Assembly: GCF_013122565.1 (NCBI RefSeq)
Contig: NZ_CP053258.1
Direction: 5' to 3' (one strand)
Origin: Escherichia coli
GTDB lineage: Bacteria > Pseudomonadota > Gammaproteobacteria > Enterobacterales > Enterobacteriaceae
Length of the DNA: 64,000 nucleotides
Shown here: positions 1 to 11,472 of the stretch, piece by piece
Position numbering within the stretch: the first letter of the stretch is position 1
How the letters are laid out: every line of letters begins with the position of its first letter
Position numbers and translations under genes: made by a program
Notes under the pieces: model-generated
Seen by the model: only the letters and a program-made list of their open reading frames with translations
Database searches by the model: none
Told to the model about the DNA's origin: nothing

Positions 1-3000
1 GTGGGGCCAGCACTTCACGATTACCGTTGTGCCCCTGTTCGCTGACAATCCCCTGCGCTTCCATCTGTTCGATAATACGCGCTGCACGGTTATAACCAAT
101 GCGGAACTGACGCTGTACGCCTGAAATTGACGCTTTGCGTTTTTCAGTGACAAACTGCACCGCCTGATCGAACAACGGATCCAGTTCTTCAGCGCCATCG
201 AAACCGCCCGCGCCACCTTCGCTTTCGCTGTCGGAGGTGATGCCATCAACATACTGTGGGCGACCACGCGCTTTCCAGTCCTGCACCACGGCATGAACTT
301 CCTGATCGCGAACAAAAGCACCATGGACACGTACCGGTAACGTGGAGTTCGGCCCAGAGTAGAGCATATCCCCCATACCCAGCAGTGATTCCGCACCAGC
401 CTGATCAAGAATGGTACGTGAGTCAATCTTACTGGATACGGTAAAGGCGATACGGGTCGGAATATTCGCTTTAATCAGACCAGTAATAACATCAACCGAT
501 GGACGCTGAGTTGCCAGTACGAGGTGGATACCCGCGGCACGGGCTTTTTGCGCCAGACGTGCTATCAGCTCTTCCACTTTTTTACCTACCGTCATCATCA
601 GGTCGGCAAATTCGTCCACCAACACCACAATGTATGGTTCTTTTTTCAGCACCGGATGCTGGGCGTCCATACTGTCACCCGGCTTCCAGTACGGGTCTGG
701 AATCGGACGCATCATGCGATCGGCTTCAGCAATTTTTTCGTTATAACCCGCCAGATTACGCACACCCAGCGCAGACATCAGTTTATAACGACGCTCCATC
801 TCGTTAACACACCAGCGCAGCGCGTTGGCGGCATCTTTCATATCAGTAACGACTTCCGTTAACAGGTGCGGAATGCCTTCATAAACCGAAAGCTCCAGCA
901 TTTTCGGGTCGATCATGATGAAACGCACATCTTCTGGCTGCGCTTTATAAAGCATGCTCAGGATCATCGCGTTCACACCGACAGACTTACCGGAACCGGT
1001 AGTCCCCGCAACCAACAAGTGCGGCATTTTCGCCAGATCGGCAACCACCGGCTCACCGGCGATATCTTTACCCAGCACCACGGTTAATGGCGACGGATTA
1101 TCGCGGAATTTGGCGTTATCCAAAACTTCGCGCAGATATACGGTTTGTCGTTTTTTATTCGGTAACTCCAGACCTACATAGGGTTTGCCAGGAATAACTT
1201 CAACGACACGCACCGCCACCGTCGAAAGTGAACGGGCAAGGTCCCGTGACAAGTTAGAAATGCGCGCCGCTTTTACGCCAGGAGCCAAGTTAAGTTCAAA
1301 GCGAGTGATAACTGGCCCCGGAGAGTAATTGACGACATCGGCTTTAATACGGAAATCAGCCAGACGCGCTTCCACCAGGCGCGCCATTTGTTCAAGCGCA
1401 AAGGCATCTACCGGCTCCACTTCGCTCGGCGGAGGTGTCAGCAAATCCAGAGAAGGCAGCGGCGTCGTCGGTTTATGCAACGGACGGCTGTCGCCATTAC
1501 GCATCAACAGCGGATGAAGCAGGGTATCCTGCGGCTGTGGCGCAACTGGCTGTTGTGGCTGCTGATACTGCGGCTGCGGTGCAACCGGTTGTTGCGGCTG
1601 CTGATACTGCGGCTGCGGTGCAACCGGTTGTTGCGGCTGTTGATACTGCGGCTGCGGCGCAACTGGTTGTTGCGGCTGCTGATATTGCTGCTGTGGCGCA
1701 ACCGGTTGTTGCGGCTGCTGATATTGTGGCTGCGGCGCAACCTGCTGTTGTGGCTGCTGATACTGCGGCTGCGGCGCAACCGGCTGTTGCGGCTGCTGAT
1801 ATTGCTGCTGTGGCGCAACCGGTTGTTGCGGCTGCTGTACAGGTTCAACAATTGGCGTAAACAGCGGTTCGTGTGGACCATCATCCAGCAACGCTTTCAT
1901 TGGCGAAAATTCAAAATCATCCAGCGAGAACGGATTCGCCCCAGCCGGTTGTTCGCCGGAATAACGTTGTTGTTGAGTTTGCGCAAACTGACGAGCCAGT
2001 TCAGCCTCTGCCGCAGCATCTGCATCTTCTGCGTTTACGGGCACATCATGTTGATACTGTTCGCCATAGCGTTGCTGCTGTGTCTGGGCGAACTGACGTG
2101 CCAGTTCATCCTGCTGCATCGCATCGATTTCATCATCGTTGTACTGATCGCCAGAATCGTACTGATTGCGCTGGGCTTCACGGGCTTTTTCTTCCGCCGC
2201 ACGCTGTGAGGGCAGCTTAATACCGTAAGACGCCAATTCACGACGAGTTGGCACGCGGATACGTTTCGGTCGTGGCAACTGCGGGCCAATCCCCTCTTTG
2301 ACCTGCGGACGCGGTCCACCGCTATTTGCCAGACTGAAGACTGGCGCGGCAACGGTTGCGGCAGCCCCCGTCGCCAGTGTCGCTTTTTTCACGCCAGATG
2401 CCAGCGGAGAAACAGCGGCAGCGGCTTCTACTGGAGGTACTGCTGCAACAGAAGGTGCTTTCAGCGAAGATTTGATCGGTTCTGGTTCTTTAACCGGTTC
2501 TGGAATCGGTTGATACCAGGCCGCAAGTTGTTCACGTTCACGGGCTCGCTTCTCTTCCACTTCTTCAAAGTAGTAAAGCGGCGGACGCGCGGGTTTTGTC
2601 TCTTCTACAACGGGTTCAGGCTCCACAACAGGCTGCTGTTCAACAGGTTGCGGCTGTTGGTACAACGGCTCCTGAGCGGCTGGCTGCTGATAAGTTTGCT
2701 CAGTCTGGTATGTAGACTGTGGAGCAAAAGTGGATTGCTGCTCTTCGGCTTGCCAGGCGTTACCTGCCACCGGTTGTTCTGGCGCAGGGGCATAATACGG
2801 CTGTTGCGCAGGCTGTTCCGGCGCAGTTGCGTAATACGGTTGCTGAACAGGTTGTTCCGCCGCAGGAGCGTAGTAAGGTTGTTGCGCAGGTTGTTCAGCT
2901 GCAGGTGCATAATACGGCTGATGCGGCTGTACTGGTTGTTGCAGCGGCTCATTATATTGCACTGCAGGCTGCGCATATTGTGACTGCTGTGGGTAACCTT

Positions 3001-4132
3001 CCGGTGCAGGAGCAATAACCGGCTCTCCCGTTTGTGGACCCGGTACAGGCTGCCAGGCTACTGTAGGTTGCGAAGGTGGAACATCAACAGAGGCAACAGG
3101 CGGCGTCTGAGTCACAGGTTCAACCGACGCAGCCCAGCTTTGTGTCGCCGTGGTAGCAGCAGCTGCTACAGCGACAGGTTCGGTAATTGGCGCACCGTTT
3201 AATAATGGATCGTATTCGTCATATTCTGGCTGCGTTGCACGATTGCCCGAAAATAGGACGTCGTCAGGGTCGGCAACCACACCGCGTGCAGTGTAGGTAA
3301 TCTCTTCTTCATCATCCATCCGCTTACCGGAGAACAGCGCAGCATCTGTTTGCCGCCCCATCGGATTAATGAATTTTTCCGCCAACCGTTTACGACGCGC
3401 TAGCGCGCCGCGAAGAATACGGGCACGGCGTGATTCATGCTGTTTGCCGTGATTTTCATCTTCATACTCTTCGTCGTCTTCATACTCATCTTCATCGACC
3501 CAGGTATCATCGCGACGGGTACGATTACTGGCGAAGGTGAGAATGTTTAAAATCCAGCCGCCGAGTTTTTCAGCAATGGTCACCCATGACCAACCGGTGA
3601 ACAACGTCAGGCCCGCTGCCCAAACGCAGAGCAGCGCAATAGTTCCCCCGCTACTGTGTAGCAGTGGTTGTAGCGTAGTGCTTAGTAAGCTGCCAATGAC
3701 GCCACCGGAGGCAAAATACCAGATATCGTCAGCGTTGATTGCCGCCAGACCACAGGAGGTAAGGATGAGCGCCAAAACGCCAATGATGCGTAGCGAAACG
3801 GCAAAATAATCAATGTATTCGTCGCTGGACTGATGACGCCAGGCAAACCAACAACCGCCGACAATAATGACGGGAATGGTGTAAGCCATCACGCCAAAAA
3901 TAAAGAACAGCGTATCTGCCAGCCATGCACCGGGCATTCCACCTAAATTATGGATAGGTTCATGCCAGGCCGTTTGCGACCAGCTGGGGTCCGAAGGGTT
4001 AAAGCTTAGTAAGGCAGCCATCAACCAGACGGCAAACAGGACAATAAGGATCAGCAACGCCTCCAGAAGGCGGCGGCCGCTACTTAACTTTGTCAATGTG
4101 ACTTCTTTGTCTTCAGTGTATTCCTGGCTCAA
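1..4132 (-). CDS. ftsK: DNA translocase FtsK, partial (last ~4 codons and stop lie before window start)
   Basis: Minus-strand frame open from TTG start at 4130-4132 (N-term [18 protein letters not shown]) to window edge; reverse complement of nt 1-60 encodes [20 protein letters not shown], the FtsK C-terminus; PQ-rich linker at 1535-1850. Confidence 0.9.
1535..1850. repeat. Tandem 39-bp repeats (about 8 units) encoding the 13-aa PQ-rich FtsK linker repeat
   Basis: Units such as ttgttgcggctgctgatactgcggctgcggtgcaaccgg recur head-to-tail with minor substitutions. Confidence 0.85.
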
Positions 4133-4266
4133 GAAAGGCTCTCCAGGTTACAGGCTTTTCCTGCCCGATGCTAAAACGGACAACAGTACCAGGTTACCCC
4201 AGTACTGTTGCTGTATGGATTAACAGGAGTGTAATCAAAATACGCCGATTTTGCACCTGTTCCGTG

Positions 4267-4761
4267 TTAGCGCGTCTTTATAACCAGACGATTACTCTGC
4301 TTGACTTCTTCCATAACAACGTATGTCCGTGTGTCATTGACGCCAGGCAGACGCAGCAGGGTTTCCCCCAGCAACTTACGGTAAGCTGACATATCCGGCA
4401 CGCGTGTTTTCAACAGGTAGTCGAAATCACCAGATACTAAATGACACTCCTGAATTTCTTCAAGTTTTTGTACAGCGGTATTGAATTGTTCAAACACATC
4501 CGGTGCGCCACGATTCAGAGTAATCTCAACGAATACCAGAAGTGATGCATCCAGATAATGGGGGTTCAGCAGCGCAGTATAGCCCTGAATAAACCCTTGT
4601 CTTTCCAGCCGACGCACACGCTCAAGGCACGGCGTTGGGGAAAGTCCCACACGTTTAGAAAGCTCGACGTTAGAAATACGCCCATCCTTTTGCAACTCAT
4701 TAAGAATGTTACGATCGATACGGTCGAGATCTTTGCCAGGGCGCTTCTTGCTATCTACCAT
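4267..4761 (-). CDS. lrp: Leucine-responsive regulatory protein Lrp (164 aa)
   Basis: ORF 4267..4815; protein from MVDSKKRPGKDLDRIDRNILNELQKDGRISNVELSKRVGLSPTPCLERVRRLERQG matches Lrp; ATG at 4759-4761. Confidence 0.95.
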   Translation of the reverse strand: MVDSKKRPGKDLDRIDRNILNELQKDGRISNVELSKRVGLSPTPCLERVRRLERQGFIQGYTALLNPHYLDASLLVFVEITLNRGAPDVFEQFNTAVQKLEEIQECHLVSGDFDYLLKTRVPDMSAYRKLLGETLLRLPGVNDTRTYVVMEEVKQSNRLVIKTR

Positions 4762-5188
4762 TATTATTGTCTCTCTGTATTCCTTCCCTACTCCTGTCTG
4801 ACCCTGAAACATCACTGTTCAGAGTCGCTACCCGTCACGATAGACCGAAATCATGAAGATTCACGGCGCGCAATGCCTGGGTCTACGGTGAGAAGACCGT
4901 TGCCTTGTGGCAGCTATCGACATCACGAATGGCGTCTGTCCACGCCATACGTAGATTTCACTAGCACGGTAAACATGGTATTTACATGCATGGTTATGCG
5001 CATATAAGAATACTGTTTTTTTTCTTCCTCGAATGTTTTCGCAAAACACCAGGGGATTGTCAAAGCAAAACATCGATTTTTAGTACAACATGCCAGATAT
5101 TCATTAACAGGGGCGTTTATTCATCATTTAATCGGCTTATAAAGCGGGAAATTTAAGTAGCAGAGGTGATAATGACGGGAGAATTTGA

Positions 5189-11384: not shown

Positions 11385-11472
11385 GGTGAGGTGTCCGAGT
11401 GGCTGAAGGAGCACGCCTGGAAAGTGTGTATACGGCAACGTATCGGGGGTTCGAATCCCCCCCTCACCGCCA
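11385..11472 (+). tRNA. serW: tRNA-Ser (anticodon GGA), 88 nt
   Basis: GGTGAGGTGTCCGAGTGGCTGAAGGAGCACGCCTGGAAAGTGTGTATACGGCAACGTATCGGGGGTTCGAATCCCCCCCTCACCGCCA; long variable arm, T-loop GGTTCGAATCC, 3' CCA encoded. Confidence 0.95.

Follow-up and report, generated by a model that had tools for sequence, protein, structure and literature searches.

The 39-bp repeat array in the FtsK linker of an Escherichia coli genome is the MLVA minisatellite CVN001/ms07, and a second array, ms06, contributes half of the extra length over K-12

The linker of Escherichia coli FtsK is described in reviews as an unstructured P/Q-rich tether of ~650 aa that connects the N-terminal membrane domain to the alpha-beta-gamma motor; parts of it contact FtsQ, FtsL, FtsI, and FtsZ, and its length differs among species. 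Such between-species variation is what the papers on FtsK-L of proteobacteria report, whereas the array repeats considered here give within-species steps of 13 aa. The locus CVN001 of generic E. coli MLVA (Lindstedt 2007) is sized with the original Lindstedt primers by the formula (product - 250)/39 (PMC8143711), and a Shigella sonnei study equated it with ms07 of the Gorge scheme for Shigella and E. coli (Gorge 2008) and gave ms06 as a second 39-bp locus. Published alleles run from 4 to 8 for CVN001 and from 2 to 8, up to 12, for ms07, while ms06 is listed with a 39-bp unit, a size range of 301-379 bp, and alleles 2, 3, and 4 (PMC8215070). A poultry E. coli study gives primers for a VNTR named "CNV001 (ftsK)" (PMC11773471). 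Outside this genus, Salmonella enterica carries a 39-bp tandem repeat in ftsK that is also used for MLVA (STTR7, the same as SENTR2; 9.3 copies in S. Enteritidis), and a repeat indel at about residues 757-784 of Salmonella FtsK was assigned to the proline/glutamine linker; the putative orthology of this array with the E. coli one rests on published position and unit length.

We analyzed a stretch of 64,000 nucleotides from an E. coli genome (contig NZ_CP053258.1), hereafter the window. The features under discussion are the following.

1-4132, minus strand: truncated ftsK, initiated by TTG at 4132-4130, with codon 1377 (...REVLAP) as the last one before the window edge
1526-1837, minus strand: array A (CVN001, ms07), 8 x 39 bp, in frame, FtsK residues 766-869
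2771-2926, minus strand: array B (ms06), 4 x 39 bp, FtsK residues 403-454
4267-4761, minus strand: lrp

The translated ftsK frame runs through all 1377 codons present in the window without a stop codon. Aligned with FtsK of K-12 MG1655 (NP_415410.1), it shows 10 mismatches over the aligned residues and two gaps, both in repeats. The Walker A motif GTTGSGKS is present in the translation, and ftsK is adjoined by lrp and then by trxB on the plus strand, in the same order as in K-12. Orthology with K-12 FtsK, the Walker A motif, and the adjacent lrp identify the product as the FtsK DNA translocase; lolA lies beyond the window edge. A search of complete E. coli genomes gave matches that RefSeq annotates without exception as ftsK, in 5,425 of 5,426 genomes. 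The C-terminal motor domain presumably starts directly after array A, at about K-12 residue 818.

An earlier note on this DNA, made from the sequence alone, had drawn attention to about eight head-to-tail 39-bp units in the P/Q-rich linker and placed them at 1535-1850. The array is real and consists of exactly 8 units in the reading frame (312 bp), although each end had been set off by ~10 bases from the true 1526-1837. Tandem Repeats Finder, one of the checks proposed with that claim, confirmed it: the period is 39, and the 7.9 copies reported at 1529-1837 (score 478) match at 90% and contain no indels. The nucleotide consensus, CAGCAGCCGCAACAACCGGTTGCGCCGCAGCCGCAGTAT, corresponds to one 13-residue unit, and the peptide unit, which ends in [P/Q]QY, is repeated eight times within the uninterrupted FtsK frame. 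Identity at lag 39 is 0.897 vs 0.287 +/- 0.027 in shuffled sequence (n = 5000, z = 22.6), and lags 38 and 40 each give 0.20.

The units of array A are not copies of one another. Pairwise identity ranges from 32 to 39 of 39 bases (up to 7 of 39 bases differ), seven distinct sequences are found among the eight units, and no exact internal repeat is longer than 53 bp. Synonymous third-position A/G changes account for 8 of the 11 variable columns among the eight units of the window, a share that compares with 21% expected for random changes (p ~4e-4, for columns that are not fully independent owing to the shared ancestry of the units). The unit divergence and the excess of synonymous columns together show that array A is old, with a conserved peptide composition and drifting codons and with no recent burst of identical copies. 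Hairpins that could form from CGCAAC...GTTGCG in each unit have predicted energies of -7.7 to -10.1 kcal/mol (z of -1.1 to -2.1 vs shuffles), too weak for a convincing special structure, and hairpin-driven instability of the array was rejected as a candidate. No Chi or KOPS motif was found in or near arrays A and B.

Published primers were then located in the window as listed below.

1428-1447, plus strand: CVN001-R site, 1 mismatch (primer sequence from PMC8143711)
1433-1452, plus strand: ms07-R site, 1 mismatch (primer sequence from PMC8215070)
1437-1458, plus strand: ECMLV4-R site, exact match (primer sequence from PMC11773471)
1932-1952, minus strand: ECMLV4-F site, exact match
Ending at 1950, minus strand: CVN001-F site, exact match
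2078-2097, minus strand: ms07-F site, exact match
2655-2674, plus strand, and 3014-3033, minus strand: ms06 primer sites, exact matches, with an amplicon of 379 bp that encloses array B

The single mismatches of CVN001-R and ms07-R fall on the same base of the window. The CVN001 amplicon is 523 bp in the window, which by the published formula, (523 - 250)/39, is allele 7, and 445 bp in K-12, which is allele 5; the MLVA allele number of CVN001 is thus the true unit count minus 1. With the ms07 primers the amplicon (1433-2097) has 665 bp, made up of 353 bp of flank and 8 units, and the ms07 allele is 8. The primers bracket the array, the unit is 39 bp, the polymorphism is in whole units, and the allele is within the published range. 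The array that had been flagged is the known MLVA locus CVN001 (Lindstedt 2007), equal to ms07 (Gorge 2008): the same locus, with a 39-bp unit in ftsK and no difference in kind.

Array B, which went unremarked in the earlier note, lies ~310 residues upstream of array A in FtsK. Its unit encodes [P/A/V][H/Q]QPYYA[P/T]A[A/P]EQP, a peptide unit other than that of array A, and it is the more diverged of the two (3.9 copies with 77% matches in Tandem Repeats Finder). The ms06 primers bracket it, and the 379-bp amplicon is the top of the published size range and corresponds to 4 units, which identifies array B as ms06. Both arrays are established markers already. The suggestion that the repeat would make a useful strain marker is correct in that its length is polymorphic, but it is ~20 years old, the locus having been in routine MLVA use since 2007-2008. 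In silico, the ftsK of the window types as CVN001 = 7 (ms07 = 8) and ms06 = 4.

Next, we compared the length of the window FtsK with that of K-12, for which the 1329 aa given in the earlier note agrees with NP_415410.1. The note had counted FtsK at ~1381 aa. Of these, 1377 codons are present, and a length of 1381 aa is an extrapolation that adds PPFD as the conserved C-terminal residues, since the last four codons and the stop fall outside the window. The 8+4 repeat architecture of the window recurs in two E. coli strains, PS10-3 and ZF8-1, whose FtsK has an annotated length of 1381 aa. The 52 residues by which the window protein would exceed K-12 had been attributed to four extra units in the flagged array. 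Direct alignment places them otherwise: K-12 FtsK has two gaps of 26 aa, one in array A (8 units in the window vs 6 in K-12) and one in array B (4 units vs 2), so that each array contributes 26 of the 52 extra residues. The alignment thus upheld the claim that the copy number differs from that of K-12, and it corrected the source of the excess. Two independent minisatellites underlie the length differences in FtsK, and a comparison of protein lengths alone therefore cannot give the copy number of either array. The array A alleles of the window and K-12 also differ at many sites within the units; because of this, the two belong to diverged allelic lineages that are more than one slippage step apart.

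To place the window allele in the population, array lengths were obtained from BLAST queries made of the flanks with the arrays removed, so that the length could be read directly from the span matched in each genome. Queries that included the arrays gave ambiguous spans, with ~20% of the rows being partial matches due to overlapping repeat pieces, whereas the flank-only queries gave clean spans. The frequencies refer to even-step samples of ~60 rows from 5,426 complete E. coli genomes and not to a census, and K-12 derivatives, O157, and ST131 are overrepresented in the genome collection. Array A (n = 59) had 5 units in 2% of the genomes, 6 units in 36%, 7 units in 47%, and 8 units in 7% (~7-10% across searches), with a 249-bp variant in 8%. 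Array B (n = 60) had 2, 3, and 4 units in 35, 33, and 30%, respectively, and a 60-bp variant in one genome (2%). Sampled array A spans vary in multiples of 39 bp except for one class with a 24-bp deletion. All sampled O157:H7 genomes had 7 units in array A and all K-12 derivatives had 6. Among the loci that were fetched, array A counts of 1, 5, 6, 7, 8, and 9 were seen, including 9-unit alleles in strains M8 and Z1322HEC0003 and a single unit in the complete genome of swine strain B2. The copy numbers of arrays A and B vary independently. In a published survey by capillary sizing of Swedish ESBL isolates, CVN001 alleles 4, 5, 6, 7, and 8 made up 1, 40, 40, 13, and 5%, respectively, and these frequencies agree with the sampled array A counts after the one-unit offset.

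A flank-only query that spans both arrays gave the following predicted FtsK lengths (n = 59).

1277 aa: 2%
1329 aa: 27%
1337 aa: 2%
1342 aa: 15%
1347 aa: 5%
1355 aa: 10%
1368 aa: 32%
1381 aa: 7%

The window, at 1381 aa, belongs to the longest common length class, and its allele is uncommon, not exceptional. The word "expanded" used for array A in the earlier note therefore holds relative to K-12, but the commonest count in the sampled complete genomes is 7, 8 units are found in ~7-10% of them, and 9-unit alleles exist. K-12 itself is near the short end of the length range, and the share of its length class is inflated by laboratory K-12 derivatives in the collection.

The order of the units was examined in the window and 13 comparison genomes, with one letter assigned to each distinct 39-mer. 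Array A maps are as follows.

Window: ABCADEFG
ZF8-1: FHBCADEG
O157:H7 2149 and 08-3918: MNCADEG
PS10-3: AIJAKLEG
K-12: OPQARS
D5: MTBCUDV
M8: MTMTBCUDV
2015C-4498: MTBWV

The M8 map is that of D5 plus a two-unit tandem duplication. Unit W of strain 2015C-4498 is a C/D chimera, with the 5' part of C and the 3' part of D, as would be expected for the residue of a misaligned deletion, and 3-unit alleles of array B also carry a chimeric unit. The window shares a C-A-D-E...G core with the O157-type allele and has one additional unit, F, which differs from the adjacent unit E by a single base. Its map was not seen among the 13 mapped comparison genomes, and its exact array A allele is absent from the 5,426 complete E. 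coli genomes; the closest allele of the same length, in PS10-3, differs from it at 9 of 312 bases. Since tandem duplications and chimeric units are the sequence signatures of misalignment between units, copy number changes by such misalignment, either in replication or in sister-strand recombination. The slipped-strand polymorphism proposed earlier is borne out to the extent that signatures of whole-unit misalignment are seen; the exact molecular route would be slippage or unequal sister-strand exchange, between which the sequence cannot tell. The constant copy number within sampled clones is consistent with a slow minisatellite that marks lineages, and not with a hypermutable locus. We are highly confident that the whole is best explained as the CVN001/ms07 minisatellite in the FtsK linker, with its number of units changed by misalignment.

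What would a change in unit number do to the protein? One unit of array A is 13 codons, and a whole-unit change keeps the reading frame. In-frame as well are a 24-bp deletion in Nissle/CFT073-type alleles (FtsK of 1347 aa) and an 18-bp deletion in strain H22 (FtsK of 1336 aa). The frame is intact in 14 out of 14 alleles, the annotation gives ftsK as an intact CDS in 13 out of 13 comparison genomes, and natural array A alleles of 1 to 9 units each have an intact annotated ftsK. Gain or loss of units only makes the tether that joins the membrane/divisome domain to the DNA-translocase motor longer or shorter. This suggests that array A is a length-tolerant spacer segment of the FtsK tether and that differences in FtsK length are probably close to neutral in function. 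It is true that ftsK is an essential gene, as the earlier note stated, yet array A is in a dispensable part of it, because only the N-terminal ~200 residues of FtsK are known to be essential for viability. In Salmonella, when a repeat indel in ftsK was swapped between strains, survival in egg white, the one phenotype assayed, was unchanged.

The wide copy range in healthy natural isolates (1 to 9 units in array A and 2 to 4 in array B) also speaks against a tuning of the linker length by selection, in which the 8+4 allele would alter the reach of the motor from the septum or the divisome contacts to the benefit of its lineage. Such tuning would be compatible with a repeat peptide that is conserved while its codons drift, and with alleles that are stable within clones, but a low mutation rate explains clonal stability equally well. 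Since the two arrays vary independently and the sole allele swap found, that in Salmonella, gave no phenotype in its single assay, we regard tuning as unlikely. Under a more specific version both minisatellites would jointly act as a "ruler" that sets motor reach or the divisome-contact surface over the range of 1277-1381 aa, and the 8+4 combination of the window would be a selected long-reach variant of a rarely sampled lineage. If this were true, every further 13 residues would extend the motor by a set amount from the septal membrane, or enlarge the contact surface likewise, and lineages would have settled on different lengths because length would affect when, in relation to the closing of the septum, or how efficiently chromosome dimers are resolved; we consider it quite improbable. 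An intragenic tandem repeat with a strain-variable copy number could also be taken for a contingency locus with phase variation, through which FtsK is turned on and off or its expression is changed. At such a locus a unit change shifts the reading frame or the promoter spacing, whereas a 39-bp unit of 13 codons cannot shift the frame, and the 24-bp and 18-bp variants do not shift it either. Hypermutable loci are built of short identical units, whereas those of array A differ at as many as 7 of 39 bases, and copy number is fixed within clones. Phase variation has, in our judgment, practically no chance of being correct. The observation has a small practical value, namely in-silico typing and the corrected source of the K-12 length difference, and it makes no open biological question testable.

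Finally, we considered whether the count of 8 units might be an assembly artefact, i.e., a collapsed or expanded tandem repeat. Short reads are typically shorter than the 312-bp array, the exact allele is missing from the complete genomes, and an exact look-up of the inferred full-length protein of 1381 aa found no record; the single unit of swine strain B2 could itself be a collapse. Set against this, the seven distinct units of the eight and the 53-bp limit on exact internal repeats mean that reads or k-mers above that length resolve the array uniquely, and the reading frame is intact through it. The 8-unit length is also found in ~7-10% of complete genomes, and CVN001 allele 7 was found in 13% of the isolates sized by capillary electrophoresis. 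We therefore hold an artefact to be very unlikely and the 8-unit minisatellite to be genuine. The lineage of the window is real, because one Logan contig (SRR11451224), the only one with an exact match to the MacB protein of the window, shares 5,947 bp with the window at 100% identity. It is absent from the complete-genome collection: among the 5,426 complete E. coli genomes, identity to the window reaches at most 99.0% over ftsK-lrp and at most 98.5% over 24 kb, and the nearest are O145:H28 strains.

Half of the difference in length between the window FtsK and the FtsK of K-12 is due to a second 39-bp in-frame tandem array in the linker, array B, which is the same locus as MLVA ms06. The copy number of array B is polymorphic across E. 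coli, ranging from two to four units. Besides array A (the ms07/CVN001 array of the linker), the window ftsK contains these repeats:

2771-2926, minus strand: array B, 39-bp in-frame tandem array of 4 units, FtsK linker
1961-2002 and 2066-2107, minus strand: two copies of a 14-residue motif, linker, just upstream of array A
3455-3496, minus strand: weak period-6 repeat, TTCATC x 7 (TRF, score 35)

The two copies of the 14-residue motif are spaced 35 residues apart and their DNA differs at several synonymous sites; K-12 also carries this motif in duplicate. The pair looks like an old dispersed duplication. The TTCATC repeat codes for an acidic stretch of 14 residues just past the FtsK membrane domain.

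Variants of ftsK are also seen in other strains. In the Nissle/CFT073-type alleles 24 bp are deleted within one unit of array A, giving an array of 249 bp and an FtsK of 1347 aa. Strain H22 is without the 18 bp that encode QQPVQP immediately ahead of array B, and its FtsK has 1336 aa. Both variants are in-frame though they do not correspond to whole units. Array A consists of a single unit in the complete genome of the swine E. coli strain B2 (NZ_CP082327.1), where ftsK (562-4395 of the extracted locus) is annotated as intact with an FtsK of 1277 aa. Either this strain has naturally lost nearly all of the array or the repeats were collapsed during assembly. In E. coli CRE10 (NZ_CP034404.1) the ftsK sequences on either side of array A have matches in two separate places rather than one, which suggests that the array or its vicinity carries an insertion or rearrangement, or has been misassembled.

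The published reverse typing primers CVN001-R and ms07-R each have a single mismatch to the window, at position 1433, where A is found in place of the C of the primers (GGCGGAGG instead of GGCGGCGG). This mismatch could slightly affect PCR typing of the window's lineage, which is absent from the E. coli complete-genome set. When window positions 1-4800 and 5000-29000 were compared with the 5,426 complete E. coli genomes, the best identity to any of them was 99.0% (ftsK-lrp) and 98.5% (24 kb), and the closest genomes in that set were those of O145:H28 strains. The window could come from a Shigella or from a lineage that is seldom sampled. The sole exact match to the window MacB protein was in a Logan contig from SRR11451224, and this contig is 100% identical to the window over 5,947 bp.

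The window has one tRNA gene, ordinary in appearance:

11385-11472, plus strand: tRNA-Ser (GGA) gene
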